From the NCBI GenBank assembly GCA_035939575.1, contig DASZFS010000049.1:1518-65517 (forward strand): a DNA stretch of 64,000 nt. The letters run 5' to 3'. Shown here piece by piece: positions 6,038 to 43,995 of the stretch (position 1 is the first letter of the stretch; each line of letters opens with the position of its first letter). The notes below the pieces were generated by a model that saw only the letters and a list, made by a program, of their open reading frames with translations, was not told the DNA's origin and searched no databases. This DNA is from Vicinamibacterales bacterium. GTDB lineage: Bacteria > Acidobacteriota > Vicinamibacteria > Vicinamibacterales > CAVVIG01. A program made the translations under genes and the position numbers.

Positions 6038-7420
6038 TCAGATGGCGCCGGCGAACGTCTCGTACAGGAGGTACACGTTGAGCACCCCGATGATAACCGC
6101 GACCGACCACGCCAGCGCTTTTACCCAGCCAGGATTCACGAAGGCGCCCATCTTCCTGACGTCGCTCGTGAAGGCCACAAGGGGGACCACCGCGAAGGGC
6201 AGCTGGAGGCTCAGAATCACCTGGCTGAGGATCAGGAGCGGGCCGGTCCCGCGCTCACCGTACAGCAGGACGACGATCACGGCGGGGATGATGGCGATGA
6301 GGCGCGTGATGAGGCGTCTCATCCAGGGGCGGAGGCGCAGGTTGAGGAACCCTTCCATCACGATCTGGCCGGCCAGCGTGCCGGTCAGCGTCGCATTCTG
6401 TCCGCTGCAGAGCAGCGCGACGGCGAACAAGACGCTGGCCATCGTCGTGCCGAGCAGGGGAGAGAGGAGCTGGTACGCATCGGAGATGTCGGCAACGTCC
6501 TGGTGGCCAGTTCCGTGGAAGACCGCCGCCGCCATGATCAGGATCGCGGCGTTGATGAAGAGCGCGGACATCAAGGCGACCGAGGAGTCGATCGTCGCGT
6601 AATGGATGGCCTCGCGCTTGCCCTCGGCGGTATCCACGTACTTTCGCGTCTGGACGATTGACGAATGCAGGTACAGGTTGTGCGGCATCACCGTGGCGCC
6701 GAGGATGCCGATCGCGATGTACAGCATGTTGCCGTTGCGGAGGATCTCGGCGCGCGGCACGAATCCGGCCATGACCGCGCCGAGATCGGGACGCGAGAGC
6801 AGCATCTCGACGGTGAACGATCCTGCGACGAGGACGATGAGCGCAACGACCAGCGCCTCGACGTAGCGGAAGCCGCGGTGCTGGAGGAACAGGACGATCA
6901 GCACGTCGAGCGCCGTCAGCGTCACGCCCCAGATGAGCGGCAAGCCCAACAGCAGATTGAGCGCGATGGCGGCGCCGATAACCTCGGCGAGGTCGCAGGC
7001 CGCGATCGCGATCTCACACACGATCCACAAGACGATGGTCAACGGGCGGGAGTAGCTGTCGCGGCACGCTTGCGCGAGGTCGCGGCCGCTGGCGATCCCG
7101 AGCCGCGCGGCCAATGCCTGGAGCAGGATGGCCATCAGGTTGGAGATCATGATCACGCTGAGGAGCGTGTAGCCGTAGCGCGCACCGCCGGCGAGGTCGG
7201 TGGCCCAGTTGCCTGGGTCCATGTAGCCAACCGCGACGAGATAGCCCGGCCCGGCGAAGGCGAAGAACTTGCTCCAGAACCCGGCACCGTGCGGGATGGC
7301 AATCGACCGGTGCACCTCGGGCAGGCTGACGCTCGTGGCGGGCAGTCGCCAGCCTTGCGGGCGCGGAAGAGGCGAGGACGATGTTTCTGGAGGCACCTTG
7401 ATCGAGTTTTGAATACTCAA
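6038..7420 (-). CDS. mntH: Nramp-family divalent metal:proton symporter
   Basis: [15 protein letters not shown] motif, many hydrophobic spans and the typical [21 protein letters not shown]-terminus. The listed start is TTG. The true start may be GTG 7396 (see the promoter feature). Confidence 0.9.
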
Positions 7421-7421
7421 A

Positions 7422-7430
7422 ATTATAGCA
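7422..7430 (-). promoter_or_regulatory. extended -10 element (TGcTATAAT) upstream of or abutting mntH
   Basis: Reverse complement of 7421-7431 is atGCTATAATt. A perfect TATAAT with an upstream TG ends 1 nt before the TTG start listed for mntH, in an AT-rich patch. Confidence 0.35.
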
Positions 7431-7483
7431 TAAACATAAGTCGACCTGTCCCCCTTCGCTCGCTGTGTGTCTTTGCTCGCGAG

Positions 7484-9130
<1,647 letters not shown>

Positions 9131-9270
9131 GAGGCCCTGCATGCGGCGGATTCTATAAGGAAACCGGCGGACGGGATCCACCGGGGAACTGGCTACCCAA
9201 CGGGGTAGTCACTTCCCGCTGCCAAGCGGGCTACGGCAGCAAAACAGGCGGTTCTTCGGGCTGTGTGATC

Positions 9271-9286
9271 CGGCACTGAATGTGCG
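9271..9286 (+). promoter_or_regulatory. weak sigma-54 -24/-12-like element (cGGCAC-N5-gTGCg) before HTH paralogue A
   Basis: GG-N10-GC spacing is correct and 8 of 11 consensus positions match. However, it lies only 12 nt from ATG 9298, so it would need a downstream GTG 9310 start or a leaderless mRNA. Confidence 0.2.
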
Positions 9287-9297
9287 GGCGCTGCGGC

Positions 9298-9579
9298 ATG
9301 CGAAGGTCGGTGTTCGTCGAGGAGGCGGCGACTCTGCTTGGGGTATCGCGGCGGACGGTGTATTACCGCATTCGCGATGGCCGGCTGAAGACGGTTCGAA
9401 CGCTGGGCGGGTCGCAGCGCGTCTTGCTCGAGTCGGTCGAGGCGTTGCTGCGCGAAGGGCTGGACGCGCGACTTAGAGGCCGAGGCGCTGGCGTTTCAGA
9501 TACAGGCCCTTCCGAGAAATCCCGAGCGCTTTCGCGGCCGGCTCGAGGCGACCGTGGTGGCTGCGCAGTGCAGCCTTGA
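9298..9579 (+). CDS. small excisionase/MerR-like helix-turn-helix protein (paralogue A)
   Basis: MRRSVFVEEAATLLGVSRRTVYYRIRDGRLKTVRTLGGSQRVLLESVEALL is an HTH_17/Xis-like core. The 3' ~107 nt overlap the convergent bEBP gene, so the C-terminal tail may not be real. Confidence 0.6.
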   Translation: MRRSVFVEEAATLLGVSRRTVYYRIRDGRLKTVRTLGGSQRVLLESVEALLREGLDARLRGRGAGVSDTGPSEKSRALSRPARGDRGGCAVQP

Positions 9580-12370
9580 TCATCTCGCATTCGATGCGCG
9601 ATAGGGTCGGGGCGAGCTTGTCAGTGAGCGGGATGGCGATCTCGCGTCCGCCGGGGCTCGGGTGCCGCAGGTCGGGCATGGCGCCGAGGATATCGGGGGA
9701 GATCGCGTCGGGCTCGAGGGTGGAGTTCGGCTCGGCGAGGGCGACCATGCGTCGGATTTCGTTTTGCAGCTGGCGCACGTTGCCGGGCCAGCGAAACAGC
9801 AGCAGGCGCTCCAGTGTGTCTTCGGCGACGTCGAGATGGCCTTTCTCGTAGTCCCGCGCGGCGAGGGTGACGAAGTGTTTGATCATGGCGGGGATCTCGT
9901 CGCGCCGTTCGCGCAGTGGCTTGATCGCAAGGCGCACGACGTTGAGGCGGTAGAAGAGGTCCTCGCGGAATTTCCCGTCGCGGACGGCGTCTTCGAGGTT
10001 GGCGTTGGTGGCGGCGACGACGCGGACGTTGACGCGGAGGGGGGCGGGCGCCCCGAGCGGGGCGATTTCGCCGGATTCGAGGAAGCGGAGGAGCTTTGGC
10101 TGCAGGTCGAGGCTCATCTCGCCGATTTCGTCGAGGAAGAGGGTGCCGTCGACGGCGCTGCGGATCAGGCCGAGTTGGTCGCGGTCGGCGCCGGTGAAGG
10201 CGCCGCGGCGGTGGCCGAAGAGCTGGCTCTCGAGGAGGTCGCGGGGGATGGCGGCGCAGTTGAAGGGCACGAAGGGCTTCTGGGCGCGGTCGGAGAAGTC
10301 GTGAATGGCGCGCGCGAGGATCTCCTTGCCTGTGCCGCTCTCGCCGGTGATGAGGACGTTGACGGTTGTGCGTGCGACGCGCTGGGCGAAGGTGGTCAGC
10401 TCGCGCATCTGGCCGGACAAGACGGCGTCACAGTGCGGCAACGGCAAGAACTCATCGGGTGCCCATAAATTCGAACGCCTCTCACGCTCGATGCGCCATT
10501 TATCTAGTTCGCGAAGTTTCTCTATCATTGCTCCCATCAGGGCAAGAGCGGCCTCGGACTCGATGTCAGGATTTGCGACGACAACAAGCTCTACCGCTTT
10601 CTCGCCATCGTCGCTTATCAAGAATCGTCTTATGTCGTTCTTCGATGATGATGATGGCTCGATCATAGACTCACGAGACTGCAGACTGCGTTTTTCTACC
10701 CTGGCTAGGCTGCAACATCCGATTCCTGTCAGTAGCTCACCCAACTCCGCAGCCACCAGCTCTGGTCGTGAAGGGTGGAGCATCGCCGTTGCCAATGAGT
10801 GGAGAACCTGCCGTCCGTCCGCAAAGATTTCGCATTCTTTGTCGAGGTGCGATCGACTCGGCGCGAAGTCCTCTAGATGCATCAATGTGGGAACATCTCC
10901 AGAGGCTTCGCAGATTCTCTTAGCTCGTGCCAGATATTGCCTCGCGCTAGCACGTTGCTCCGAATGAGCCGAGCTCCTGGATACCACAAACTCGAATCTC
11001 GCAAGAGACTCTGATGAATGGCCCTCCGCGCTGCTCATGACTTCCCGCAGAACGCCGATGCAGTTGACTGTCTTGTCCAACCTCTGAAGAATTTCAGCGT
11101 TTGTCAGTAGCGCAGATTTAAGAAGGCTGTGATCCCCCGTCACGCGCGACAAATGTATGGTTTGCCAGATCGCCGACAGTGCCTCGCTGAACATTCCTTG
11201 TTGCGCAAGAAGCCTGGCTCTGGTGTGTTCGGCATACCTGTGCGCGTAGAAAGCCCGATCGCCCTCCGTGTGAATTGTTGAATCGATCTGTACGAGTAAT
11301 TCGTTGCATTCTTCAAATCGCCCCTGCGCCAGCCTGGTCTGTGCCAATGCTTCGAGGACTCCATTATGTCTGTTGCCTTTTGAAGGAAGAATGCTGAGCG
11401 CCGTCTCAAAATATCCGACGGCCCGGTCGAATTCTCCAGAAATGAAGAGAAGACTCCCGGTATTTGCGGCCGCAGATCGACGAGACGCCGCAGAGCCCGA
11501 TTGTTCCGAGACGCTAAGTGCTCGTTCAGAGTGGTACTTGCCTTCTTCCAGCTGAGAACGCAAGACACACACAGCGAGCAAAATGTTCTCGGCTAATCCT
11601 TCCAGCCAGAGGTTTGGAATGCCGGCGATCAGCTGCTGGCCGAGTCTGACATGGCGAACGGCACTGTTCAGGAGTCCACGTCGTGCCTCCATCTCCCCGA
11701 CAAACATGTGAAGTTGAGCGGTGGTCTCGGGGTCGCCCAGCTTCGTGGTTGAACGCCGAAGATCATATAAGAGAGGAGTTGCTGCTTCGGGGCCTGAACG
11801 GTCCGAGACAACGGCTAGCAGTTTGCTTTGAATCCAGCAAAGCTGCCTCAAATTGCCACTCTTTGCGGAGAGGGCCGCGGCTCGCTGCAAGCGTGCGGTC
11901 CCTTCATCGGTGCAACCATCCTCAATGAGAACTCGGCCGAGGATGTTCTCACAACTTGCTAGCTGCGTTGGCGTAAGTCGGGGAGAATGTCGGAGTCGTT
12001 CTGACATGACTCGGGCCTGCGGGTGGTCACCGAGAATCTCAAGAAGTTCGGCTCTCGTGATTTGCGCTTCGGTTGACTCGGACGCGTTCTTAGAGAGCCC
12101 CTGATCCAGACTTTTAAGGGCTTCCCAATAACGACCCTGTCGCTGCAGACTGAGGACCGAGGCGAAGTGTTCGCTCTGCTCTTTTTTGTCTCGCACAAGG
12201 TGGATTCTTGCAGAGTTGACGACGTTTAGAGCCCTTTGAGGAACAAATCCCGGGATTAGCGTGCAACAGCTAGTCCAGGGCCGTGCGCCAAGCTGTGAGC
12301 ACTCAGTGAATACGCGGCTCTTTCTCCATGGTTTCGAAGGAAGGATGCACAGGTCCCGAAGGGGCTGCAA
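9473..12370 (-). CDS. sigma-54-dependent transcriptional activator (bEBP) with long TPR-like plus GAF-like N-terminal region
   Basis: Walker A GESGTGKE, GAFTGA loop (HRRGAFTGA), Walker B TLFLDEIGE and a C-terminal Fis-type HTH (AAKALGISRKGLYLKRQRLGL). The N-terminal ~640 aa is helical-repeat-like. Start uncertain: TTG 12370 (68-nt overlap with the upstream gene) or GTG 12196. Confidence 0.85.
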   Translation of the reverse strand: MQPLRDLCILPSKPWRKSRVFTECSQLGARPWTSCCTLIPGFVPQRALNVVNSARIHLVRDKKEQSEHFASVLSLQRQGRYWEALKSLDQGLSKNASESTEAQITRAELLEILGDHPQARVMSERLRHSPRLTPTQLASCENILGRVLIEDGCTDEGTARLQRAAALSAKSGNLRQLCWIQSKLLAVVSDRSGPEAATPLLYDLRRSTTKLGDPETTAQLHMFVGEMEARRGLLNSAVRHVRLGQQLIAGIPNLWLEGLAENILLAVCVLRSQLEEGKYHSERALSVSEQSGSAASRRSAAANTGSLLFISGEFDRAVGYFETALSILPSKGNRHNGVLEALAQTRLAQGRFEECNELLVQIDSTIHTEGDRAFYAHRYAEHTRARLLAQQGMFSEALSAIWQTIHLSRVTGDHSLLKSALLTNAEILQRLDKTVNCIGVLREVMSSAEGHSSESLARFEFVVSRSSAHSEQRASARQYLARAKRICEASGDVPTLMHLEDFAPSRSHLDKECEIFADGRQVLHSLATAMLHPSRPELVAAELGELLTGIGCCSLARVEKRSLQSRESMIEPSSSSKNDIRRFLISDDGEKAVELVVVANPDIESEAALALMGAMIEKLRELDKWRIERERRSNLWAPDEFLPLPHCDAVLSGQMRELTTFAQRVARTTVNVLITGESGTGKEILARAIHDFSDRAQKPFVPFNCAAIPRDLLESQLFGHRRGAFTGADRDQLGLIRSAVDGTLFLDEIGEMSLDLQPKLLRFLESGEIAPLGAPAPLRVNVRVVAATNANLEDAVRDGKFREDLFYRLNVVRLAIKPLRERRDEIPAMIKHFVTLAARDYEKGHLDVAEDTLERLLLFRWPGNVRQLQNEIRRMVALAEPNSTLEPDAISPDILGAMPDLRHPSPGGREIAIPLTDKLAPTLSRIECEMIKAALRSHHGRLEPAAKALGISRKGLYLKRQRLGL

Positions 12371-14684
12371 GCTGCGAAAGAGCGGTGGTGTCGATGGGAC
12401 TGCAAGCGACTGAAACGGTCGCCTCTGTCTTAAGAAGAATACCGCTCGCCGTACGAACCGTCTGATGAATCAATCTGTCGCGAATCCCAAGGCCGATTGC
12501 ATTGGCGCTAAGCATTGGCGTATCGGGCAGGAGAACGATGAATCTCTCGCCTCCGTGGTAGAAGAGAGAATCAGATTGGCGAAGGTGCCTTCGAACTGTA
12601 TCGGCCGTCTCGCTGAGAAGGTCGTAAGCGGCGCCGCTGCCGAGCGGAGCAGCAACCTTGCCGATACTATCGATCGTAATATGGAGAAGTGCGTGTTCTG
12701 ACCTCGCTCGAGAAGTTGCTCCAACGAGCTCAATCAAGCGGTTGAAGTTGGGAAGCGCCTTCAAAGGGTCGCGTTTGGTCGCCTGATCAAAAGCGACACT
12801 TCGGCGAAGAGCCCTTGCGGCCTCCCTAGCCACAGCTTCGATGATTCGTCGATGATCCTCGTTGAAACCGCTGACCTCCGTGGAATAAATCGACAGGACG
12901 CCAACAAGGTCGTCGTCCGTCGCGAGCGGAGTGCACAGACAACTCCTGAGAGAGAGCGCGTGTGGCCTCGCAGTGTCGCCAAAGTCTAGGACTGGGTCGG
13001 AATTGATGATGGTTTGGCGGTTCGCCGCAACCCAACCGCTTAGCCTTTGACCGAGGGGAACGCGAAGGCCCCTAACAAGAGATGCCCCTTCCCCAGTTGC
13101 GTGCCTCGCTTCGAGTTCAGCAGTGCCTTCGTCCACAACGAAGAACACACACAGCGAACATGAGATCAGGCGTCTGAGATGTCTTGCGCTTATATCGGCG
13201 GCGTCAATTGCATTAACCTGGGCGCTCAAGTCTCGAGCCAGTTCGTGCAATGTGAGCGTTTCGTCGACACTGGCGGAAATCCCGTCGAGTATCGGCGCAC
13301 CAAGCGTCGGCGGCACCGCCTTGCGAGCGCTGGCGATTTCGTCAAGGGCGCGCGGCGAAGGACCGCTGGCCGACGGTGCCGGCGCGATTAAGTCATGGAC
13401 TTTGACGAAGGTGTCAACAACTAGCGGGTCGTACATGCCGCCCCGCCGCTGCATCAGTATGTTGAGGGCTTCTGAGTCGCTGAGTCTCGGCCGGTACGGA
13501 CGGTCGGACGTCAGTGCGTCAAAGCAATCGACGACTGAAAGAATGCGCGCTCCTATTGGAATGTCGGTTCCTCGGAGCCCAGCCGGATAGCCTGTGCCAT
13601 CCCAGTTCTCATGGTGATGGCGAACTATAGGCACGACTGGGTAGGGAAAATCGATCGCCGAGAGGATGTCAGCGCCTACGCTGGCGTGCAGTTTCATCTT
13701 GTCGAATTCAGCGGCCGTCAGTTTGCCTGGCTTGTTCAAGATATATTCTGGAACCGCTAGTTTTCCCATGTCGTGGAGCAGCGCGGCCGCTTCAATTGCC
13801 TTGAGCAGACGTTCTTCCTTGATTCCGACATAGCCGGCTAAACCAGTCGCGTACGTCTGCACTCGTCGAATATGCCCGTGCGTAACCTGATCTTTGGCGT
13901 CGATCGCCATCGCAAGGGTTTCAATTGTCGAGAGGTAGAGCGTATTGAGCTCAGACAAATGATTGCTAGCGTCTTCAACGCGCCCCATCGCGGTTCGGAA
14001 TGTCAAATAGGAAACGACGAGCAATGGGACGATTATGGCAAGAGTGCTGTAGTTGAATCGGTTCGAGTATGTGACCAGCAAAGCTGCGACTGACGCTCCG
14101 CTGAAATAGTTGACGGAGAGCCAAGTGAAGTTCTTCCACCAGATTTCAAACGGTGATTTTCTAGTCTCGAATCCGAGAGCGACCGCGACCAGCCAGCTAT
14201 TTAGAAGAAAGTACAGAGCGGTGAAGACGACGAGTGGAAGGAATAAGCCCTCAAGCTGGGTAACCTTTTCGGAGTAAGGCGGTTGGCCGGATATCAGGAA
14301 GAACGCGCTGCCAGAGACCCAAATTGCGATTGCCGGTGCAGCAGTATTGAAAAGGACTCGGTGGACCGGCCGGCTTCCCGGCTTCATCCAAAAGAGAATG
14401 ATGAGGCACTCTAAGAGAACCGTTATAGCGCCAGCGGAAGGACCGAATATCAGTACTGAGGCAAAGACGAATGTCTCAGATACGGACAGACTTGCATTTA
14501 TCGTAGGGACCTTGACCGTGAAAGATCCCGTAAGTAGCGTGAGACCAGCCAGGATAAACCACTGCCGGCCGATGGGTTCCAGGTAGAGAACTTGGACCGA
14601 ACGCGCAACGGTGGCCGCGCCAAGGAGCACGACGGCAGCTACGTAGGCTCGGGCAAGCGGTCGTAACTTCAGGAACTCTTGCAT
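12303..14684 (-). CDS. multi-pass membrane HD-GYP protein with GAF and degenerate GGDEF (GGERF) domains
   Basis: About 7 N-terminal hydrophobic spans. HD...HHENWDGTGYP (HD-GYP) is present, followed by a GAF-like block (VFFVVDEGTAELEARH...LVGVLSIYS) and a GGDEF-like C-terminus with YHGGERFIVLL. ATG 14684 is preceded by GGAG at 8-nt spacing. The ORF track starts at GTG 14693. Confidence 0.85.
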   Translation of the reverse strand: MQEFLKLRPLARAYVAAVVLLGAATVARSVQVLYLEPIGRQWFILAGLTLLTGSFTVKVPTINASLSVSETFVFASVLIFGPSAGAITVLLECLIILFWMKPGSRPVHRVLFNTAAPAIAIWVSGSAFFLISGQPPYSEKVTQLEGLFLPLVVFTALYFLLNSWLVAVALGFETRKSPFEIWWKNFTWLSVNYFSGASVAALLVTYSNRFNYSTLAIIVPLLVVSYLTFRTAMGRVEDASNHLSELNTLYLSTIETLAMAIDAKDQVTHGHIRRVQTYATGLAGYVGIKEERLLKAIEAAALLHDMGKLAVPEYILNKPGKLTAAEFDKMKLHASVGADILSAIDFPYPVVPIVRHHHENWDGTGYPAGLRGTDIPIGARILSVVDCFDALTSDRPYRPRLSDSEALNILMQRRGGMYDPLVVDTFVKVHDLIAPAPSASGPSPRALDEIASARKAVPPTLGAPILDGISASVDETLTLHELARDLSAQVNAIDAADISARHLRRLISCSLCVFFVVDEGTAELEARHATGEGASLVRGLRVPLGQRLSGWVAANRQTIINSDPVLDFGDTARPHALSLRSCLCTPLATDDDLVGVLSIYSTEVSGFNEDHRRIIEAVAREAARALRRSVAFDQATKRDPLKALPNFNRLIELVGATSRARSEHALLHITIDSIGKVAAPLGSGAAYDLLSETADTVRRHLRQSDSLFYHGGERFIVLLPDTPMLSANAIGLGIRDRLIHQTVRTASGILLKTEATVSVACSPIDTTALSQLAAPSGPVHPSFETMEKEPRIH

Positions 14685-14788
14685 GGCGGCCACTCCTCTA
14701 TGGAAGTGGCCCCAACGTTATCGGTCTAGTTGCCCCAAACGATTAGTGAGCGCATGACTCTCTCCCTTAGGTAGTTACCAAAACTGTG

Positions 14789-16585
14789 CTAGTTGACGAG
14801 GTCTTGGCCCCAGATGATCGTGTCGGCCTCGACGTTTTGGCCCCAGATGATGGTGTCTGCGGTGCTTTGCCCCCATATGATGGTGTCACCAGCGTTCTGA
14901 CCCCAAATAATGGTGTCGCTCGCGTTTTGCCCCCAGATGATGGTGTCTCCAGCGCTCTGCCCCCAAATGATGGTGTCTGCAGCCGACTGGCCCCAGATAA
15001 TCGTCTGGCCTTGGACAAGGGTTTGACCCCAAATGATGGTCTGGCCCCAGATGATGGTTTGCCCCCAAATAATCGTCTGGGCACGGAGAAGTGGATCGAC
15101 CTTGGGCACGATCAACAGGCCTCGCGCCTGCACAATCTCGCCACCGATCGACATTTCTGGAATTGAATGTTTCGTGAGGCTCCGGGACGATAGGGTGACA
15201 GCTGCCAAGACATTCAGGCTGCCGGCGCCGACGCCAACCAGGCCCTCTGTCTGAACCGCTGACGCGCTAACCTGAACTGTTCCCTTTACTGCATATGGCT
15301 TCATGTTCGGCCGCTGCTCCAGCACGAGCGCCACCGAACCGCTCACCACTGCCGCCGCCATGCTCGTCCCCGACAGCTGCATGTACGCGTCGTCGCCGCT
15401 GCCGGCCACATGCCGCTCGGGATGCATCGTCGCGAGGTACGCGTTGCTCGCCTGCGCGGACACGATGTGCGTCCCCGGCGCCGCGAGATCGGGCTTGATG
15501 ATCAAGTCGTACCGCGTCGGCCCGCGCGAGCTGAACGCGGCGAGCGTGTCGTCCGACCGCTGCGGCGTGCCATGGGTGTCCAGCGCCGCGACGGTCAGCG
15601 CATACGGGCTGTTCCCCGGCGACGTGATGCTCCCCATCACGGTCTTGCCATTCGCGCTGAGCCCCAGGTTCCCCGCTGCCGTCACCACCACGATGCCCGC
15701 GGTGACCGCGCGCTCAACCGCTTCGCACAGGGGATCGTCGCGATAGGGTTGAAGAACCGGCGTCCCGAGCGAGAGATTGATCACGCGAATCCCGAGCTCG
15801 TCCCGATGATCGACGGCCCAGTCCATCGCGTCGACCACGTTGCTCACCGTGCCCGAGCCGTCGTCACCCAGCGCGCGCAGGTTGACGAGACTCGCCCCCG
15901 ACGCGATGCCGCGGTACATCTGTGTGTCGGCGGTCCGCCCCGCCGCACCCGCGATGATGCCCGCCACATGCGTCCCGTGGCCGAACCGGTCCACGCCATC
16001 GCCGCCGGTGAAGTCCTTGGTGAAGATCACGCGATTGCGAAGCGCCGCGTGCTGGGTGTCGATGCCGGTGTCGATGATCGCGACCGTCACGCCGGTGCCG
16101 ATCAGCGGCCGCAGGTCTCCCTCGCCAGCCCACACCTGGTCCGCGCCAATGCTCTCCGCCGTCACGTCTGCCGCCGACCGGATGACGGTGTCGCCCGACA
16201 GATGATCGACCGCGTCATCCTGCTGCAACGCCGCGAGCTGACCGGCGTTGACGCGCAGCACCGCGCCCGTCTTGAGATAGCGCGCGACCACGACGTTGTA
16301 CCGCGCGGCCAGCGCGTCCACTTCCGCCTTGGTGCCGTGCACAATGACGTCGATGCGCGGCGACTGCACCAATAAGTGATCCGCGAGGTCCGCGCTCAGG
16401 CGCGCGCTGTGATGCTGCGCGCGGGCAGGCACCGCCATGCAGACCATGGCCATCGCACACACGAGCCCGCGGAGGGCCCGGGGAGTGATCGTGGCGACGT
16501 TCGCGACGCGTGCGACGTTTGCTGCGGGCGCCACGGGGCAGTCATGCGATGCGGTCGGATGTGTGTGGGCCATCGGCGGTCTCAT
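14789..16585 (-). CDS. secreted S8 (subtilisin-like) serine peptidase with C-terminal TIIWGQ repeat tail
   Basis: Catalytic triad contexts VAIIDTGID, HGTHVAGIIAG and SGTSMAAAVVSG are present. It has a signal-like N-terminus (AMAMVCMAVPARAQ) and 11 C-terminal xxxDTIIWGQ / TIIWGQ repeats. Confidence 0.9.
   Translation of the reverse strand: MRPPMAHTHPTASHDCPVAPAANVARVANVATITPRALRGLVCAMAMVCMAVPARAQHHSARLSADLADHLLVQSPRIDVIVHGTKAEVDALAARYNVVVARYLKTGAVLRVNAGQLAALQQDDAVDHLSGDTVIRSAADVTAESIGADQVWAGEGDLRPLIGTGVTVAIIDTGIDTQHAALRNRVIFTKDFTGGDGVDRFGHGTHVAGIIAGAAGRTADTQMYRGIASGASLVNLRALGDDGSGTVSNVVDAMDWAVDHRDELGIRVINLSLGTPVLQPYRDDPLCEAVERAVTAGIVVVTAAGNLGLSANGKTVMGSITSPGNSPYALTVAALDTHGTPQRSDDTLAAFSSRGPTRYDLIIKPDLAAPGTHIVSAQASNAYLATMHPERHVAGSGDDAYMQLSGTSMAAAVVSGSVALVLEQRPNMKPYAVKGTVQVSASAVQTEGLVGVGAGSLNVLAAVTLSSRSLTKHSIPEMSIGGEIVQARGLLIVPKVDPLLRAQTIIWGQTIIWGQTIIWGQTLVQGQTIIWGQSAADTIIWGQSAGDTIIWGQNASDTIIWGQNAGDTIIWGQSTADTIIWGQNVEADTIIWGQDLVN
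14804..15076 (-). repeat. coding tandem repeat, 18-nt (TIIWGQ) and 30/33-nt (xxxDTIIWGQ) units
   Basis: The protein tail reads TIIWGQ x3, TLVQGQ, TIIWGQ, then SAAD/SAGD/NASD/NAGD/STAD/NVEAD-TIIWGQ. The DNA shows CCCCA(G/A)AT(G/A)ATGGT... recurring with matching periodicity. Confidence 0.9.
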
Positions 16586-16590
16586 GGGTC

Positions 16591-16836
16591 CTAAGGATGT
16601 AAGGGACGCTCCGCGACGACGGACGCTCGGAACTCCTGCACCGAGTCGAGCAACACCCGCTGCGACCCGCCGCGCGTCCGAATTGTCTGAAGCCGCCCTT
16701 CCCGAATCCGGTTGTAGACCGTGCGGCGCGACACACCCAGCAACTGCGCAGCATGGTCCAGCGAGACGCTCCGTCCGATACGAGGTTCGACTTCGAGGTC
16801 GGTTTGCACGCGATCGTCAGCGTCGGTTGCGCTCAT
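16591..16836 (-). CDS. small excisionase/MerR-like helix-turn-helix protein (paralogue B)
   Basis: ...GRSVSLDHAAQLLGVSRRTVYNRIREGRLQTIRTRGGSQRVLLDSVQEF. 33 of 48 residues are identical to paralogue A by hand alignment. It ends 5 nt before the S8 peptidase start. Confidence 0.65.
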   Translation of the reverse strand: MSATDADDRVQTDLEVEPRIGRSVSLDHAAQLLGVSRRTVYNRIREGRLQTIRTRGGSQRVLLDSVQEFRASVVAERPLHP

Positions 16837-16864
16837 CTCAGTAGTGTCCGGTGCCGTCTATAAA

Positions 16865-16880
16865 GGCACGGCAGGTACCA
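16865..16880 (-). promoter_or_regulatory. candidate sigma-54 promoter (TGGTAC-N5-GTGCC) upstream of the HTH-B/S8 operon
   Basis: The minus strand reads TGGTACCTGCCGTGCC. GG-N10-GC spacing is correct and 8 of 11 consensus positions match. The -12 GC lies 30 nt upstream of ATG 16836, and a bEBP is encoded in the same gene string. Confidence 0.35.
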
Positions 16881-17019
16881 CGAACCGGAGCATCGCGGGG
16901 ATGGTATCTAACTCGTTGCTCAACAGTAAGTTGCTGGGCTAGCATGTCGGGGGGCTCAGCTGCCGTTTGACAGGCGGTTGGCCAAGAACCTGGCCTGTCA
17001 CAGGAAGTCTCCTCCATAG

Positions 17020-18903
17020 ATGTCTCTTTTTGCACGCAGAATAGCGCCCAACGGCCGGGTTGCACACAATTTTGATCGGCCAAGTTTTTGGCCACCTGGG
17101 CAGCTTTTGACCAGACAGGCGCGCATCGTGTCGGCCACTGCCGCGCTTGCCGTCGGAACCGCCCTGGCGGTTGCGTCAGGGGCGTGCGAACAGACCCCCG
17201 TCGCGCACGCACCAGGGGTCCGATCTGAAGCTGCGCCGGCAGCCGCAGCCGGCATTCCCGCAAGAGGCGGCTCGGCGGTTGCCTCCATTCGGACCGAGCC
17301 CCGGTCGTTCAACCGCCTGGTCGCGCGGGACAGCAGCACCGACCTGGTGGCGACCCTCACCCAGGCCAAGCTCGTTCGCATTAACAAAGTGACGCAGGAG
17401 CTCGAGCCTTGGCTTGCCCAGAGCTGGAAAACCGATGCGGACGGCCGCCACTACACCCTGGCCCTGCGCGAAGGGATCGCCTTCTCAGACGGTCACCCGT
17501 TCACCTCCGACGACGTGGTGTTCACGTTTCGCGCGTTGTACGACGCGAAAACGCAAAGCCCACTCGGTGATGCGCTGACCATTGCGGGCAAGCCAATCGA
17601 GGTCGCGGCCCTCGATCCGCACACCGTCGCGCTCACATTTCCATCCGCGTTCGCGCCCGGGCTTCGCCTCTTGAGCAACCTTCCAATTCTGCCCAGGCAC
17701 AAGCTTGAAGGCGCGTTCCGCCAGGGGACGCTCGCGGCGGCGTGGGGGGTGTCGACCGCGCCCGCGGACCTCACCGGTCTCGGTCCATTCATCCTGAGCG
17801 CGTACACACCGGGTCAACGGCTGGTGTTCGATCGCAACCCGCGCTATTGGCGAACCGACGATCGCGGCACTGCGCTCCCGTATCTCGACCGCCTGACCGT
17901 CGAGATCATCCCGGATCAGAACGCCGACCTGCTGCGGCTCCAGGCAGGGCAGCTTGATATGACGACCAGCGAGGTCGCGCCGGAATCGTACGCCGCGACC
18001 AGGCGTGCCGCGGACGCCGGAACGCTGAAGCTGTACGATCTCGGCGTCGCGCTCGTCGCCGACAGCTTCTGGATCAACCTCAAACCTGGCACGTTCGCTG
18101 GCGACCCGCGCGCCGCGTGGCTTCAGCGGGACGAGTTCCGGCGCGCGATCTCGATGGCGGTGGACCGCAGGCTCTTCGCGGATACGGTGTTCTTCGGCGC
18201 GGGAGAGCCGGTCGACGGCCCGGAGACGCCCGCCAACAAGAAGTGGTACTCGCCTGACGTGCCGAAGGTGCCCCACGACCCCGACGGAGCCAGGCGGCTG
18301 CTGGCGTCCATCGGCCTCAACGATCACGACGGCAGCGGCGGGAACGGTCTCCTGATGGACGCCGGTCAGCGGCCCGTGCAGTTCACGCTGCTCACGCAGA
18401 AAGGGCGGCCCCGGCTCGAGCGGGGCGCGTCGGTCGTCCGCGACGAGCTCCGGAAGATCGGCGTGGTCATGGACGTCGCGGCGCTGGACGGCGGCGCGGT
18501 CATCGAGCGCATCGTGTCGGGCAAGTACGACGCGGTGTACTTCAACCCTCAGGCGACGGACACGGACCCGGGGACAAACCCGGACTTCTGGCTCAGCTCC
18601 GGTACGGCGCACCTGTGGAACATGGCGGAGGCCAAGCCCGCCACCCCCTGGGAGCAGCACATCGACGAGTTGATGGCGCGGCAGGCAGCGTCGTTCGACG
18701 AGAACGAGCGGCGGCGCATTTTCACCGATGTCCTTCGCATCTTCGGCGAGCACCAGCCGGTGCTCTACTTCGCCGCGCCCAGGCTGTTTGTCGCCGTGTC
18801 GTCCCGCATGATCCTGACGCCGGCCGTGGATCCGTGGCCCGCGCTGTGGTCGCCGGATACCATCGCGGTTGCGGTCCGCGCTCAACCGACGCCGGGACGA
18901 TAG
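17020..18903 (+). CDS. ABC transporter substrate-binding protein, family 5 (peptide/nickel type)
   Basis: 627-aa ORF with an N-terminal signal/lipobox-like LAVASGAC. Length and conserved blocks (e.g. FSDGHPFTSDDVVFTF, NPRYW) are typical of DppA/OppA-like SBPs. Two permease genes follow. Confidence 0.8.
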   Translation: MSLFARRIAPNGRVAHNFDRPSFWPPGQLLTRQARIVSATAALAVGTALAVASGACEQTPVAHAPGVRSEAAPAAAAGIPARGGSAVASIRTEPRSFNRLVARDSSTDLVATLTQAKLVRINKVTQELEPWLAQSWKTDADGRHYTLALREGIAFSDGHPFTSDDVVFTFRALYDAKTQSPLGDALTIAGKPIEVAALDPHTVALTFPSAFAPGLRLLSNLPILPRHKLEGAFRQGTLAAAWGVSTAPADLTGLGPFILSAYTPGQRLVFDRNPRYWRTDDRGTALPYLDRLTVEIIPDQNADLLRLQAGQLDMTTSEVAPESYAATRRAADAGTLKLYDLGVALVADSFWINLKPGTFAGDPRAAWLQRDEFRRAISMAVDRRLFADTVFFGAGEPVDGPETPANKKWYSPDVPKVPHDPDGARRLLASIGLNDHDGSGGNGLLMDAGQRPVQFTLLTQKGRPRLERGASVVRDELRKIGVVMDVAALDGGAVIERIVSGKYDAVYFNPQATDTDPGTNPDFWLSSGTAHLWNMAEAKPATPWEQHIDELMARQAASFDENERRRIFTDVLRIFGEHQPVLYFAAPRLFVAVSSRMILTPAVDPWPALWSPDTIAVAVRAQPTPGR

Positions 18904-19883
18904 TGGCGCGCTACGTCGTCCGGCGGCTCGCGTTCGCGCTGTTCCTGGTCTTCGCCGTATCGTCGGCCTCCCTCGTTCTTGCCCGTCTCGCGCCAGGTGA
19001 CTACGCGGCGACGTCGCTTGGCTTCGAGGCGAGGCGGGAGACCGTTGACGAGATGCGCGAGCGGCTGGGACTCAACAAGCCGCTGATCGCCCAGTACCGC
19101 GACTGGCTTGCCGCCGCCCTGCGCTTCGACTTCGGACGGTCGCTGCAATACGATCGTCCTGTCCGCGATTTGATTCCCGAGCGCGCTGCCAACACGGCGC
19201 TCCTGTCCATCAGCGCCATTCTCCTCGCCACCCTCGTCGGCCTTCCGCTCGGCGTCGTCGCCGGCAGCCGCCGGAGCGGTCTGCTGCCAGGCGCGATTCG
19301 CGCGGCCTCGCTGGTGCTGCTGTCGACGCCGCCGCTGCTCACGTCACTGTTCCTTGTCTTCCTGGCCGCGCGGACCGGTTGGTTTCCCATCGCCGGCATG
19401 CGGTCGGCCGTCGTGCCGCCGGGAGGCGCCCTGGTCGATCTTCTGCATCATCTCGTCGTGCCTGCGGCGGCCATCGGCCTTCCGCTCGCGGCCATGCTCG
19501 AGCGGCTGGAAGCGCAGGCCATGACCGAAGCGGTCGCGGAGCCGTTCGTCCTGGCGGCGTTCGCGCGCGGTGTGCCGACGGCCCGCGTGATCTGGCGCGA
19601 CGCGCTGAAAGCGTCGCTGCGGCCGGTCGCGTCGGTGTACGGCCTCATCATCGGCACGCTGTTCAGCGGATCGTTCGCGGTCGAGGTCATCACGGCCTGG
19701 CCCGGGCTTGGCAGCCTGATGCTCGACGCTCTGCGCACGCGCGATGTGTACCTGGTCGCCGGATGCGCCGGCGCTGGCGCGGTGTTTCTCGCTGCCGGGA
19801 CGCTGCTGTCGGACCTGGCCCTGGCGCTGGTGGATCCCCGGGCAAGGGAGTCGCGGGAGTCGCGGGAAACGAGGGAGGCGTGA
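18903..19883 (+). CDS. ABC transporter permease (DppB/OppB-like)
   Basis: GTG 18903 overlaps the SBP TAG. The N-terminus VARYVVRRLAFALFLVF... is the typical permease start and there are six hydrophobic spans. The upstream part of ORF 18615..19883 lies in a different reading frame over the SBP gene and is not real. Confidence 0.85.
   Translation: MARYVVRRLAFALFLVFAVSSASLVLARLAPGDYAATSLGFEARRETVDEMRERLGLNKPLIAQYRDWLAAALRFDFGRSLQYDRPVRDLIPERAANTALLSISAILLATLVGLPLGVVAGSRRSGLLPGAIRAASLVLLSTPPLLTSLFLVFLAARTGWFPIAGMRSAVVPPGGALVDLLHHLVVPAAAIGLPLAAMLERLEAQAMTEAVAEPFVLAAFARGVPTARVIWRDALKASLRPVASVYGLIIGTLFSGSFAVEVITAWPGLGSLMLDALRTRDVYLVAGCAGAGAVFLAAGTLLSDLALALVDPRARESRESRETREA
19846..19881 (+). repeat. 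9-nt tandem repeat (GGGAGTCGC x2 plus 2 degenerate units) encoding RESRESRETREA
   Basis: Read directly at the extreme 3' end of the permease gene. It overlaps the GTGA start/stop junction with the next permease gene. Confidence 0.9.
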
Positions 19884-20881
19884 CCGTTCGCGCGGCGCGC
19901 GGCGTTCATCCGTTGGGGGGCGCGATCGTCCTGGTAACCGCCCTGGCCGCGATCCTCGCGCCGCTTGTCGGGCCGCACGCGCCCGACGATCACTTTTCGA
20001 GGTGGCTCAATGCGCCTCCAACCCTGCCGCACATCCGCGACTCGGCGGGGACCTGGCAGCGCCCGTTCATCTATCGCTGGCGGCTGGTCGACCAGCTCGA
20101 ACAGCGCTACGAGGAAGACCGCTCGCGCCCTGTGCCGCTCGCGTGGTTTGCGCGAGGCCGCCTGGTCTCCTCCGCGGACGAGGCGACGGCGCCATTGATG
20201 CTGCTGGGCACCGACAGTTTCGGCCGCGACGTATTCACGCGGCTGCTCTTCGGCGCGCGAGCATCGCTTGGCGTCGCCCTGACCGCGGCAATCGGCGCGA
20301 TGCTGATCGGCGCGCTGATCGGCGGTGTTGCCGGCGTCACCGGCGGTGGGGTCGACGACCTGCTCATGCGCGGCGCCGATTTCGTCATGGTTCTGCCGGC
20401 GATGTACGTCGCCCTCGCTCTGCGGTCGGTCCTGCCGCTCGTGCTGCCGTCTCGAACTGTGTTCATCCTCCTGACCGGCATCTTCGCGACCGTCGGGGCG
20501 CCGTTCGTCGCGCGCGGCGTCCGCGCGATCGTGCGCAGCGAGCGGCGGCTCGACTATGCGCTCGCGGCCGAAGCGTTGGGCGCCAGCCGCGCACGGCTGC
20601 TCGTGCGTCACCTGCTGCCCGCGGCCCGTGGTTTCATCGGCGTCGAGATCACGATGCTCGTGCCGGCTTTCGTGGTGGCCGAAGCGACGCTGTCGTACGT
20701 CGGCCTCGGCTTTCCCGACCCGGTCGCCAGCTGGGGCACCATGCTTCACGACGCGGCGAACGTCAGGGTGTTCGTCGACTTTCCGTGGCTGCTCAGTCCC
20801 GCGCTCGCCATGTTCGCAGTGGTCCTCGGTCTGAACCTCGCCCTGCAGGGACGCCGGACCGGCGTAGAATCAATTCGATGA
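19880..20881 (+). CDS. ABC transporter permease (DppC/OppC-like)
   Basis: GTG 19880 forms a GTGA overlap with the upstream stop. It has an N-terminal TM (GGAIVLVTALAAILAPLV), then the LGTDSFGRDVFTRLLFG motif typical of OppC/DppC, and hydrophobic spans. Confidence 0.85.
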   Translation: MTVRAARGVHPLGGAIVLVTALAAILAPLVGPHAPDDHFSRWLNAPPTLPHIRDSAGTWQRPFIYRWRLVDQLEQRYEEDRSRPVPLAWFARGRLVSSADEATAPLMLLGTDSFGRDVFTRLLFGARASLGVALTAAIGAMLIGALIGGVAGVTGGGVDDLLMRGADFVMVLPAMYVALALRSVLPLVLPSRTVFILLTGIFATVGAPFVARGVRAIVRSERRLDYALAAEALGASRARLLVRHLLPAARGFIGVEITMLVPAFVVAEATLSYVGLGFPDPVASWGTMLHDAANVRVFVDFPWLLSPALAMFAVVLGLNLALQGRRTGVESIR

Positions 20882-41765: not shown

Positions 41766-42274
41766 CACTCGCCGGCCGGCTTCGGCATAGCATGTTCGCA
41801 GACCCACGAAAAGAAACGATCCTGATCCACACCACCGGCTTCATCTCCAAGATCCACAAACATTTTCTCGATTTCATCATCTGTCTGGTGAAACTCGTAG
41901 GCATTGAGATCGAGAAACGCAAGCATTGCGATAGCGGCGGTGCGCTTATTGCCATCTAAGAACGGTTGGCCTTCAGCTATTCCGAAGGCGTAGGAAGCAG
42001 CCTTATGAGGAATCGTCGGATAGAGATCATCGCCGCCGAATGTGGCGCGAGGTTGCCCAACGGCCGATGCTAGCCCCTCGTACGAACGAAAGCCCTCACT
42101 GCCTCCACCGACAGCGAGGGCCATCTTGTGATACTCAACGACTTGATCCAACGTTAAGTAGATCGCTCCAAACGCGATGATGTCACCGCTTGGTGAGCCG
42201 CTCAGCAGCAAGATTCTCCAACAGTTTCCTGCGAGTCTGAACGACGCGTTCTCCAGCCGCACGGGCTTCGTCAT
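41762..42274 (-). CDS. doc: Fic/Doc-family death-on-curing toxin homologue with Gln in place of the motif His
   Basis: The motif reads GQPFLDGNKRTA (expected HxFxDGNKR) and LEsA-like GLASAVGQP is present. The gene lies immediately downstream of an AbrB-type antitoxin gene. Start uncertain: the ORF start 42274 overlaps the antitoxin by 92 nt, and in-frame TTG 42151 is an alternative. Confidence 0.75.
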   Translation of the reverse strand: MTKPVRLENASFRLAGNCWRILLLSGSPSGDIIAFGAIYLTLDQVVEYHKMALAVGGGSEGFRSYEGLASAVGQPRATFGGDDLYPTIPHKAASYAFGIAEGQPFLDGNKRTAAIAMLAFLDLNAYEFHQTDDEIEKMFVDLGDEAGGVDQDRFFSWVCEHAMPKPAGEC

Positions 42275-42431
42275 CCTTCGCTACTCGATGCGGTGTAAGG
42301 ATCAACTGCTCCCCATGCGGGGTGAGTTCGACTTCCGTCCCAATCTCCCATCCCAGTTGCTTCATGACGGCTTGGTCGATGGTCAAACCCGCAGAGTTGC
42401 CGACGCGGGTTACACGTTTCACTAAGGCCAT
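42183..42431 (-). CDS. AbrB/MazE/SpoVT-type antitoxin
   Basis: MALVKRVTRVGNSAGLTIDQAVMKQLGWEIGTEVELTPHGEQLILTP is a swapped-hairpin AbrB-like fold signature. GGGAGG lies 5 nt upstream of the ATG. Confidence 0.8.
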   Translation of the reverse strand: MALVKRVTRVGNSAGLTIDQAVMKQLGWEIGTEVELTPHGEQLILTPHRVAKDDEARAAGERVVQTRRKLLENLAAERLTKR

Positions 42432-42453
42432 TGGCCACCTCCCACACCGCTCA

Positions 42454-42604
42454 GGTTATAACATCGTCATAACCCAAGCGAATATAGCTAGTTGCGGAAA
42501 TTAGCGCCTCGCTAGATAAATTAGCTATTAGCTAATGCGAGATTAGCCCTTGTGGTAGTCGCCAACTGATCGTATATTGATCATCCTAAAGGAGATTAGC
42601 CCTT
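42454..42604. promoter_or_regulatory. cluster of operator-like repeats in the divergent antitoxin / orphan-gene intergenic region
   Basis: Repeats seen: IR GGTTAT-N9-ATAACC (42454-42474, overlapping a TATAAC -10 for the antitoxin); AAATTAGC at 42498 and 42518; perfect palindrome ATTAGCTAAT (42527-42536); 13-nt direct repeat GAGATTAGCCCTT at 42539-42551 and 42592-42604; IR TGATC-N7-GATCA (42567-42583). Confidence 0.5.
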
Positions 42605-43077
42605 TGCCCATTTTCCGCGTCGTGATCAATGGCCGTGAAGTTACGGCCGAAAGTCTCGATGATCTCGAAGCTCTGCTAGACCGTTTTCCAGGCACGCATT
42701 CGACGCCTGCAGAAACCCATTCACCGTCGCATCGGGCCGGAAAGGCGCATCCAGACGGCCCTTGGCCTGCGTCTCGATTTAAAGATTTTATCGGCCGACT
42801 GACCGATTCTCAGCGACGAATGCTCCAAGAACTAGTCAAGAGCCAACATGGAAAGACCGCACGCGACTTGGCGCAGATCCTTGGATTTCGGGACGCCAAG
42901 GTCTTCGGTCCTGTCATGGCCGCAATGTCCAAGCACGCCAAGAAAACAGGAGTTCGCATCCAAGACGTGTTGACGACGGAGCGCATAGATGTTGGCGATC
43001 ACGAGAAGGCCACGTTGTTTAAGGCCGCAGATTCGTTTGCTCGGGCAGCCGGAGAGGCTGGTTGGCCTCGGAGCTAA
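42604..43077 (+). CDS. hypothetical protein with possible winged-helix segment
   Basis: TTG 42604 is preceded by AAGGAG at 9 nt; the ORF track starts at TTG 42577. The central LTDSQRRMLQELVKSQHGKTARDLAQILGF looks HTH-like. No family recognised. Confidence 0.45.
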   Translation: MPIFRVVINGREVTAESLDDLEALLDRFPGTHSTPAETHSPSHRAGKAHPDGPWPASRFKDFIGRLTDSQRRMLQELVKSQHGKTARDLAQILGFRDAKVFGPVMAAMSKHAKKTGVRIQDVLTTERIDVGDHEKATLFKAADSFARAAGEAGWPRS

Positions 43078-43157
43078 AAGGAGGCAAATCTATGCACATT
43101 CTGAGAGTAGCCCGTCCCTGTCTCCTGGCCCACCGGGAGTCCGGGGAGATAGACGAA

Positions 43158-43197
43158 GGGCCGTCCCTCCTACCCTAAGCAAGTAAAGGGACGGCCC
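43158..43197. repeat. perfect 11-bp inverted repeat GGGCCGTCCCT-N18-AGGGACGGCCC
   Basis: Read directly. A third partial copy (CCCGTCCCT) lies about 50 nt upstream. A second small hairpin CCTCAC-tttc-GTGAGG followed by TTTCC is at 43207-43226. Possible terminator or IS-end remnant. Confidence 0.6.
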
Positions 43198-43230
43198 ATA
43201 GGTGGGCCTCACTTTCGTGAGGTTTCCTAG

Positions 43231-43983: not shown

Positions 43984-43995
43984 TGGAGGCGATGA

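Follow-up and report, generated by a model that had tools for sequence, protein, structure and literature searches.

What joins the genes for a secreted protease, a membrane-embedded HD-GYP signalling protein, a sigma-54 activator and two small helix-turn-helix (HTH) proteins that lie side by side in the genome of a Vicinamibacterales bacterium? The question is raised by a locus in a 64,000-nt stretch of contig DASZFS010000049.1 (assembly GCA_035939575.1); we refer to this whole stretch as the window, and all coordinates given below without further qualification are positions in it. An earlier sequence-only reading of this DNA had picked out the locus as a possible novel module but had seen no feature that would unify it. 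Conserved sigma-54-type promoter motifs in front of both the first HTH gene/protease gene pair and the second HTH gene supply such a feature, and we consider it probable that the locus represents a sigma-54 regulon module which is specific to the Vicinamibacterales (Acidobacteriota subdivision 6), is inherited vertically within them and works by the mechanism proposed below.

Four of the five genes are read from the minus strand. HTH-B (16591–16836), the first gene after the predicted promoter P1, encodes an 81-aa protein of the HTH_17/excisionase (BldC/Xis-like) family and is separated by 5 nt (16586–16590) from the gene of a predicted secreted S8 subtilase (14789–16585; Peptidase_S8, E = 1.3e-50). 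After a gap of ~95–104 nt there follows a gene for a membrane protein with HD_5, GAF and degenerate GGDEF matches (12303–14693, with a likely start at ATG 14684), and then the gene of a bacterial enhancer-binding protein (bEBP), that is, a sigma-54 activator, with a tetratricopeptide repeat (TPR) sensor (9473–12196, in a frame that is open up to 12370; TPR, Sigma54_activat, AAA_lid and HTH_8 matches). The HD-GYP and activator genes either overlap or, with the activator starting at 12196, are ~106 nt apart. The fifth gene, HTH-A (9298–9579, plus strand), encodes a 93-aa HTH_17/TIGR01764 protein paralogous to HTH-B; it converges on the activator gene and overlaps its 3' end tail to tail by 107 nt. 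The list of open reading frames (ORFs), together with profile searches of the window ORFs with Pfam and NCBIfam, bears out the five ORFs, their domains and their spacing as first described, including the 5-nt gap, the second gap (then put at ~100 nt) and the choice between overlap and gap at the activator gene.

Relatives of the locus were collected by scanning one genome per species with the HD-GYP protein. This yielded 451 loci, of which the best 80 were analysed; neighbouring genes were mapped on them by tblastn of the window proteins, and the tallies of neighbouring genes are restricted to loci with enough flanking sequence. Almost all of these 80 loci are in metagenome-assembled genomes (MAGs) labelled Vicinamibacteria, Vicinamibacterales or Acidobacteriota. 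The idea that the genes form a conserved module is well supported by their neighbourhoods, as they co-occur in other genomes far beyond chance: the S8 gene immediately precedes the HD-GYP gene in 63 of 66 assessable loci, the activator gene immediately follows it on the same strand in 59 of 63, and both are present in 51 of 53. Independent gene calls give the same gene order in four loci (L001, L004, L085 and L086), most clearly in L086, which reads HTH_17, S8, HD-GYP, TPR activator and inverted HTH_17, followed by Nramp. The membership of the module has to be redrawn, however, since the invariant core consists of the S8, HD-GYP and TPR activator genes and does not include the HTH genes. This core trio is kept, for example, in L055 and L070 despite differing flanks. 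Elsewhere the flanks are themselves syntenic across species and comprise genes for Nramp, an AMP-binding enzyme, a peptide-binding protein (SBP_bac_5, hereafter SBP5) with permeases, a dihydrodipicolinate synthase-like enzyme and a transglycosylase; the divergent SBP5 gene is found in 60 of 65 assessable loci. Seven typical Vicinamibacterales loci (L013, L022, L039, L041, L051, L070 and L081) were found inside MAGs named for other taxa (Bifidobacterium breve, Betaproteobacteria, Alphaproteobacteria, Phycisphaerales, Planctomycetota, Fimbriimonas and Gemmatimonadaceae), a misplacement that is most likely due to binning contamination of these MAGs.

The predicted sigma-54 (−24/−12) promoter P1 (TGGTACCTGCCGTGCC, 16865–16880, minus strand) contains a GG-N10-GC element and ends 28 nt upstream of the HTH-B ATG, and a second predicted sigma-54 promoter, P2 (CGGCACTGAATGTGCG, 9271–9286, plus strand), precedes HTH-A; both have the form TGGCAC-N5-GTGC. 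A motif of the form TGG(C/T)(A/G)C-N5-(G/C/T)TGC stands at the same place in 32/32 HTH-B loci (26 found by regular expression and six variants by eye) and before the inverted HTH gene in 18/18 (16 by a loose regular expression and two variants by eye), and in the clade that lacks HTH-B a P1-type element is located directly in front of the S8 gene. Using a strict pattern, we obtained a match at the P1 position in 49 of 59 loci (~47 kb of search space) as against 25 matches elsewhere in 2.87 Mb, both strands included, which amounts to a ~120-fold enrichment at P1. The gap between the HD-GYP and activator genes, which served as a negative control, showed only sporadic, non-conserved sigma-54 matches; one such match in the window, at 12277–12262 before the activator gene, was dropped as it is not conserved in orthologs. 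Scans for sigma-70 promoters and terminators gave matches at or below chance level. Because a gene for a competent activator lies between the two motifs, its product is the obvious candidate to drive P1 and P2, and most likely both are served by it.

The position of P2 has a further predicted consequence. The ATG of HTH-A starts 11 nt after the last base of P2 in the window and 11–14 nt after it in most loci (11–12 nt after the P2 16-mer also in L017, L020, L030, L046, L047, L048 and L075). Sigma-54 promoters usually start transcription ~12 nt after the GC of the −12 element, and we therefore expect the HTH-A mRNA to have no leader or almost none. The pairing of a sigma-54 promoter with a leaderless mRNA would be unusual.

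The activator carries the expected catalytic features of its class (Sigma54_activat, E = 4e-67), with a Walker A motif GESGTGKE at residue 676, GAFTGA at 723, Walker B LFLDEIG at 744 and a C-terminal Fis-type HTH_8 domain at residues 923–962 (E = 1.2e-10); its start is likely GTG 12196. It lacks a receiver domain, and its sensor is a TPR (MalT-like) region of ~580 residues. The sensor family is narrow, with 141 clusters at E ≤ 1e-30 among 1.84 billion representatives, and its full-length members are all ~890–950 residues long; the same architecture is seen in independent gene calls of L086 and L004. All scores against the named bEBP equivalogs of NCBIfam are below cut-off, the best being NtrC (302.9 versus 558.6), which covers the AAA+/HTH part only. 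Like the NtrC-family bEBPs, the protein combines a GAFTGA-bearing AAA+ domain with a Fis-type HTH_8 domain and is encoded next to its presumed target, and, as in NtrC-family systems such as NtrC/glnAp2 and the one-component regulators NorR and PrpR, a GG-N10-GC motif is accompanied by palindromes 55–250 nt upstream and, in the window, by an IHF-like element between upstream site and promoter. It differs from that family in that its sensor is a TPR region rather than a receiver, GAF, PAS or V4R domain and in that one presumed target is a near-leaderless small HTH gene. The −12 element of the window family is mostly GTGC or CTGC, unlike the TTGC of usual sigma-54 promoters.

Two alterations of the activator gene were observed among relatives. 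One relative (L001/L002, 12494–13672; HD-GYP protein 73% identical) possesses only the TPR part of the activator, fused to or abutting an AMP-binding gene. L003 (3600–9000 of a contig from JGI 3300064109) is 90% identical to window positions 14081–10344, and the match ends exactly at the Walker A codon of the activator gene; beyond this break, at window position 10344, the contig encodes a large serine recombinase (Resolvase + Recombinase + Zn_ribbon_recom) and a second resolvase and also carries an ArdC-like gene. The break reflects either a chimeric assembly or the insertion of a mobile element into this close relative's activator gene.

Three classes of conserved sites were found upstream of the promoters. 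Class (a), GGGTA(G)-N3-5-(C)TACCC, is represented in the window by the palindrome CTACCCaacgGGGTAG (9193–9208), which together with a CTTCCC half-site (9212–9217) forms a candidate P2 upstream activator site (9193–9217) located 54–78 nt upstream of P2. This palindrome is unique in the window, CGGGTAG occurs in 13 of 16 P2 upstream regions, and the 29 class (a) matches in 1.435 Mb of loci are all upstream of P1 or P2: ~55–100 nt upstream of P2 in HTH-bearing loci and 171–197 nt upstream of P1 in loci without HTH genes. Upstream of P1 the class is present in 0/27 loci with HTH genes versus 22/33 without. Class (b), GCCAR-N4-YTGGC, has two window copies of the form GGCCAR-N4-YTGGCC (16980–16995 and 17078–17093) where 0.02 are expected; among the loci there are 74 matches within 330 nt upstream of P1 versus 16 elsewhere in 1.15 Mb, and two copies occur at fixed distances in both clades. 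The activator sites could be class (a), class (b) or both, as the activator could use either palindrome. An anchored alignment of P1 upstream regions also revealed a recurrent GCAAnGAGTTA or CAA-N4-TTR sequence ~35 nt upstream of the −24 element; its window copy, GCAACGAGTTA (16909–16919, minus strand), appears IHF-like when compared with the consensus WATCAANNNNTTR.

Class (c) consists of TGYGTGCAA direct repeats (17030–17038 and 17060–17068 in the window) that are spaced by 30 nt and flanked by the class (b) palindromes, so that classes (b) and (c) together occupy a regulatory block (16980–17093) that lies upstream of P1 and is common to P1 and the divergent peptide-transporter operon. Class (c) pairs were found in 13/27 HTH-bearing loci versus 0/33 others. 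The reverse complement of a repeat of this type, TTGCACGC (12259–12266, minus strand), lies between the HD-GYP and activator genes, in a gap where YTGCACRH (TTGCACRC at 12266–12259 in the window) is present in 13/27 HTH-B loci versus 1/29 without HTH-B; TTGCACGC might be an operator of the activator gene or part of an internal promoter for it. The gap itself measures 4–50 nt in many loci without HTH genes and is long and variable in the HTH clade. A TGYGTGCAA-type motif is also enriched over background near P2, in three of 15 loci by regular expression and in two more by eye, but as a general feature of P2 it was dropped because these loci are too few. The pattern of class (c) sites is suggestive of an operator for the HTH proteins, for which it is the best candidate by comparison with BldC.

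The relationship between HTH-A and HTH-B was close to that first proposed. Their paralogy is real, although 34 rather than 33 of 48 core residues are shared, and their DNA is similar as well, forming a 112-nt inverted repeat that is 78% complementary (9335–9446 and 16631–16742). The family is not locally abundant, as there is no third paralog in the window and the next tblastn match has E = 0.011. Both proteins exceed the TIGR01764 and Pfam HTH_17 cut-offs, while against the BldC model NF033787 they score 28.4 and 24.4 bits, below its cut-off of 77. By sequence, the solved structures closest to them are 4j2n Gp37 (E = 0.008), which we take to be a mycobacteriophage excisionase, and 6amk (E = 0.58), which we take to be BldC. 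In other species, too, the inverted pair occupies these two positions, and it does so as two orthologous lineages: in a tree of the HTH cores, a tight, near-invariant B clade (TIYNRIR) is set apart from looser, distinct A copies (TVYYRIR). The presence of separate lineages at two fixed positions indicates that the pair is an old duplication. Inverted though it is, the pair does not bracket the locus in the sense of a mobile element, since the flanks are syntenic.

The HTH-B position is occupied in 30 of 66 assessable loci, and an inverted HTH_17 gene is found at the HTH-A position in 17 of 60, with an independent gene call in L086. Among the 52 loci that are fully assessable, 12 have both genes, 11 only HTH-B, two only HTH-A and 27 neither. 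As far as these sequences tell, the HTH genes are a later addition of one subclade, to which the window belongs. Like BldC and the excisionases, the two proteins are small (70–90 residues) and stand-alone, have a MerR-like or winged-helix HTH, and lack an effector or dimerisation domain. BldC of Streptomyces binds direct repeats as multimers (PMC5859096), and the candidate operators of the window proteins are likewise direct repeats. Unlike excisionases, they have no recombinase partner among the ORFs examined, and thus they are not recombination directionality factors; unlike both BldC and excisionases, they form a convergent paralog pair with a sigma-54-type promoter motif in front of each member. 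We found no report of convergent HTH paralogs each behind such a motif.

The HD-GYP protein is predicted to be a c-di-GMP (cyclic diguanylate) phosphodiesterase with a membrane-embedded input domain. Its gene has a GAGGAG Shine–Dalgarno sequence before ATG 14684, and the protein begins with a membrane-embedded region weakly matching MASE9 and continues with HD_5 (E = 6e-40), GAF and GGDEF domains. When we compared catalytic and signature motifs in 19 aligned orthologs, the HHExxDGxGYP motif (RHHHENWDGTGYP) was near-invariant, whereas a canonical GG(D/E)EF diguanylate cyclase signature was present in none of the 19, being GGERF in the window and GSDEF, TSDEL, GRDRF, GGNVF or similar in the orthologs. 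An intact HD-GYP signature combined with a degenerate GGDEF domain leads to the prediction of a phosphodiesterase that has a regulatory pseudo-cyclase domain. Full-length orthologs at 55–73% identity are abundant. With RpfG-type phosphodiesterases the protein shares intact HD and HHExxDGxGYP motifs; it departs from them in its input, an integral-membrane domain plus GAF instead of a receiver or PAS domain, and in a GGDEF domain that is degenerate throughout its family.

The S8 protein has a signal peptide, an N-terminal propeptide-like domain, a catalytic domain and a C-terminal repeat tail, and its Asp/His/Ser triad is in subtilisin order (DTGID from residue 172, HGTHVAG at 203 and GTSMAA at 406). 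An exact-sequence look-up of the window protein gave no match. The tail, already noted as unusual, is indeed a true tandem array (14804–15080) with a 30-nt period repeated 5.7 times (14804–14977) and an 18-nt period repeated 5.2 times (14987–15080). It is built of (D/N)(T/S)I(I/V)WG units, which are kept in homologs at varying copy number, and some orthologs with a 9-residue tail period match the RTX (HemolysinCabind) model. In an AlphaFold2 model made from a 26-sequence alignment the propeptide-like domain is confident; the tail, at a predicted local distance difference test score (pLDDT) of ~30, is uninformative. Reading in frame past the stop codon (14726–14788, minus strand) gives ...MRSLIVWGN*, preceded by AAGGGAGAGAG. 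This decayed IIWG-type unit suggests that the tail probably extended further before it acquired its stop codon, in keeping with the varying number of repeats among orthologs. Another S8 paralog, with a tail of the same type, was observed in L016, L027, L028, L034, L038 and others, all without HTH genes; it is encoded on the opposite strand beyond the peptide-transporter genes, ~5–8 kb upstream from the HD-GYP gene, and the strict sigma-54 pattern has no match in front of it. Of the original description of the locus as a regulatory or secretion-linked module, the regulatory half is supported, but there is no sign of a secretion apparatus, and the protease has a signal peptide of its own.

Soil metagenomes contain the locus, and three soil metatranscriptomes contain parts of it. 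In one of these runs, one RNA contig is exact over 14670–14888 and thus reaches from the S8 stop codon across the entire gap to the HD-GYP start, a second covers the HTH-B/S8 junction (16568–16791) with four mismatches, and a third is exact over 11794–11959, inside the activator gene. These contigs support expression of the locus and co-transcription across two junctions. On the coding strand no terminator-like site was found between the genes.

The composition of the module is uneven. A low-GC3 (G+C at third codon positions), rare-codon tract on the minus strand (10451–15145) runs through the S8 tail and all of the HD-GYP gene into the activator gene, of which it takes in the TPR half, and G+C is 0.52–0.60 over ~10450–15150 versus 0.65–0.70 in the flanks. 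The GC3 of the HD-GYP gene is 0.60 in the window, with a species median of 0.61 (n = 80), and that of the TPR half of the activator gene is 0.56 (median 0.60, n = 69); the corresponding values are 0.89 for the AAA+ half (median 0.87, n = 61), 0.85 for the catalytic part of S8 (median 0.89), 0.84 for SBP5 (median 0.85) and 0.89 for Nramp (median 0.90). The G+C trough is present in every ortholog examined and ends in the middle of the activator gene, and the rare-codon pattern recurs in the orthologous stretch of L005–L084. Per 1000 codons, TTA is used 6.3–7.7 times in the tract versus 0.3–0.7 in neighbouring genes, ATA 5.2–7.6 versus 0.4–1.0 and CTA ~13 versus ~1, and across species the three codons are 5- to 20-fold enriched in the tract. 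With HD-GYP amino-acid identity at 48–73% between species, synonymous sites should be saturated, and a bias in composition that had merely been inherited by accident should by now have been lost. This implies selection, acting either at synonymous sites or on the local DNA composition, and possible causes are translational throttling, rare-tRNA dependence or nucleoid-protein binding. A second low-G+C stretch in the window (0.56, at 42000–44000) adjoins a MacB/FtsX-type permease gene (44321–47002).

On the far side of the regulatory block lies the gene for the SBP_bac_5 peptide-binding lipoprotein (17107–18903, plus strand), the first gene of the divergent ABC permease operon. Because conserved non-coding motifs extend to 17093, its start should come after that position, and it is probably TTG 17107 or GTG 17128 rather than ATG 17020, the mechanical ORF start; a lipoprotein signal peptide with a lipobox-like SGAC follows either of the two later codons.

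Taken together, we propose that the TPR activator is a one-component sensor that would bind the upstream palindromes and, on a signal, open the sigma-54 holoenzyme at P1 and P2 at the expense of ATP. The P1 transcript would give HTH-B, the protease and the phosphodiesterase, and read-through into the activator gene would amount to positive autoregulation, which is most plausible where the gap is 4–50 nt. There would be two outputs: proteins would be degraded outside the cell, and the HD-GYP enzyme would lower the level of c-di-GMP. These might make up a starvation or surface-lifestyle switch in which protein scavenging feeds the divergent peptide ABC importer, and/or serve matrix remodelling and dispersal by analogy with RapA/LapG. 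P2 would give the near-leaderless HTH-A mRNA, and transcription from it, running antisense into the activator gene, could act as a brake. HTH-A and HTH-B would be secondary regulators on the TGYGTGCAA-type repeats, both in the P1/transporter region and before the activator gene, and their binding would tune the expression of activator and transporter. The HD-GYP protein may in turn control the activator, via c-di-GMP levels or by direct contact; a precedent is RpfR, which acts on the RpoN-dependent activator BerB (PMC9684580). As in the RpfR–BerB pair, the gene of a predicted c-di-GMP enzyme is linked here to that of a sigma-54 activator. In the Lap-type control of surface proteolysis, starvation-induced dispersal involves the phosphodiesterase RapA together with LapD and LapG (PMC3032545). 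The proposed module resembles it, as a functional analogy only, in that a phosphodiesterase is coordinated with proteolysis outside the cytoplasm in a nutrient response; it differs from it in that the window has no LapD-like receptor, LapG (C93) protease or adhesin gene and in that its protease is an S8 subtilase with a repeat tail of its own.

Other explanations of the locus have to be weighed against this proposal. That it is a mobile genomic island, with the Xis-like genes as excisionases at the ends of an integrated or invertible element, is suggested by the HTH_17/TIGR01764 excisionase family, by the best structural match (Gp37), by the inverted arrangement of the HTH pair and by the low G+C between ~10450 and 15150. 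We found no recombinase among the ORFs of 7000–20000 or the 15 window ORFs scanned with Pfam, no tRNA gene within the window, and no match in plasmid and phage megablast searches, and both module and flanks are syntenic in dozens of species. The G+C trough does not coincide with the HTH genes, and its presence in every ortholog and its end in mid-gene argue against recent acquisition; moreover, conserved sigma-54-type motifs precede both HTH genes, and the A and B copies are old lineages that have been kept separately. An island is thus very improbable, and, as judged from the genomes compared, the module is vertically inherited in Vicinamibacterales. The fixed, syntenic position of the locus is also unlike that of a variable defence island and bears on a role in anti-phage defence, in which the subtilase and a small HTH protein would form an Iet-like or MADS-like system. 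PADLOC did report mad1 for both HTH proteins, subtilase and IetS for S8 and an RtcR-type match for the activator, and NCBIfam reported IteS for S8, but these are domain-level matches with scores far below the family cut-offs (60.8 bits versus 900 for IteS); the locus lacks the partner genes, with no IetA-type ATPase and no mad2–8, and the protease has the signal peptide and propeptide of an exported enzyme. We give the defence explanation next to no chance.

Two further readings carry somewhat more weight. The genes could simply have been inherited in synteny with no functional coupling, being transcribed independently while the real targets of the activator lie elsewhere. The unrelated flanks are kept too (SBP5 in 60 of 65 loci, Nramp in many), the HD-GYP/activator gap is long and variable in the HTH clade, and L001 has lost the AAA+ part of the activator while the rest is kept. 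Against this, one sigma-54-type motif adjoins the sigma-54 activator gene and the second is found at its far end, HTH-B and S8 are separated by 5 nt and, in many species, the HD-GYP and activator genes by 4–50 nt, no terminator-like site separates the genes, RNA contigs cross two junctions, and the core trio persists where the flanks differ (L055 and L070), so that we hold mere synteny to be quite unlikely. In Bacillus, peptides of the Phr type are processed by subtilases, taken up through Opp and bound by TPR receptors. An RRNPP-like route of this kind, with the subtilase making peptides, SBP_bac_5 and permeases importing them and the TPR region binding them to switch on P1 and P2, would explain why S8, SBP5 with two permeases and a receiver-less TPR regulator lie side by side across species, and the TPR sensor is narrow and fast-evolving, as expected of a ligand-specific receptor. 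However, there is no propeptide gene and no credible small secreted ORF in the intergenic gaps, the TPR region matches generic or MalT-like TPR models only, the gene calls show no ATPase gene adjacent to the ABC operon, and the adjacency may reflect nutritional use of peptides. We therefore think peptide sensing unlikely.

Several observations weigh against a sigma-54 regulon module as proposed here. General synteny is high in this order, as the SBP5 tally (60/65) shows, and this makes adjacency weaker evidence for shared function. The metatranscriptome contigs are unstranded and may include DNA carry-over, and the promoters and operators rest on consensus and conservation. The associations between motifs and clades are not phylogenetically independent; they come down to essentially two clades, and Fisher p-values overstate their support. 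In HTH-bearing species the GGGTAG palindrome is found only at P2 and P1 keeps only the GCCAR palindromes, and with the palindromes split in this way one activator specificity does not obviously serve both promoters. L001, which has no AAA+ part and no HTH-A, nevertheless has P1, HTH-B, S8 and HD-GYP intact, so that P1 may use another activator or the locus may be decaying. The physiological role, scavenging or dispersal, is pure inference.

How novel, then, is the locus? The sequence-only reading could place it in no described system, and this is still the case, as PADLOC, NCBIfam, Rfam and the literature gave domain-level matches only. A literature search on Vicinamibacter and sigma-54 returned nothing, and one combining an activator with HD-GYP and subtilisin returned unrelated systems only. 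Rfam gave no match at E ≤ 0.1 in 8800–17400, and hence neither a c-di-GMP riboswitch nor any other known RNA is present in that interval. Every protein belongs to a known superfamily and none reaches a named equivalog cut-off, so the locus is a new wiring of known parts. We infer that it works like a classical activator/sigma-54 operon, from which it varies in its TPR sensor, its payload of protease and HD-GYP protein, its convergent BldC/Xis-like genes and its order-wide rare-codon tract.

A bolder version, in which subtilase, SBP5 and TPR sensor make up a peptide-responsive lifestyle switch gated by the BldC-like pair and the rare-codon tract, strikes us as a long shot. If true, it would carry the logic of Gram-positive RRNPP signalling over to a sigma-54 output, and the TTA/ATA/CTA tract in the two sensor-encoding segments would tie translation to the supply of rare tRNAs, as bldA does in Streptomyces.

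Vicinamibacterales belong both to the most abundant bacteria of soil and to those least often cultured, and to our knowledge almost nothing is known of regulation in them. For this order, the sigma-54 regulon module proposed here would provide a circuit of candidate promoters, operators and outputs that is defined at the base level, directly testable and conserved across the order. It would add a TPR sensor class to the sigma-54 activators and would be the first case of BldC/Xis-like proteins under sigma-54 control, and its intragenic, order-wide rare-codon tract would offer a natural example for the study of synonymous-site selection in a high-GC genome.

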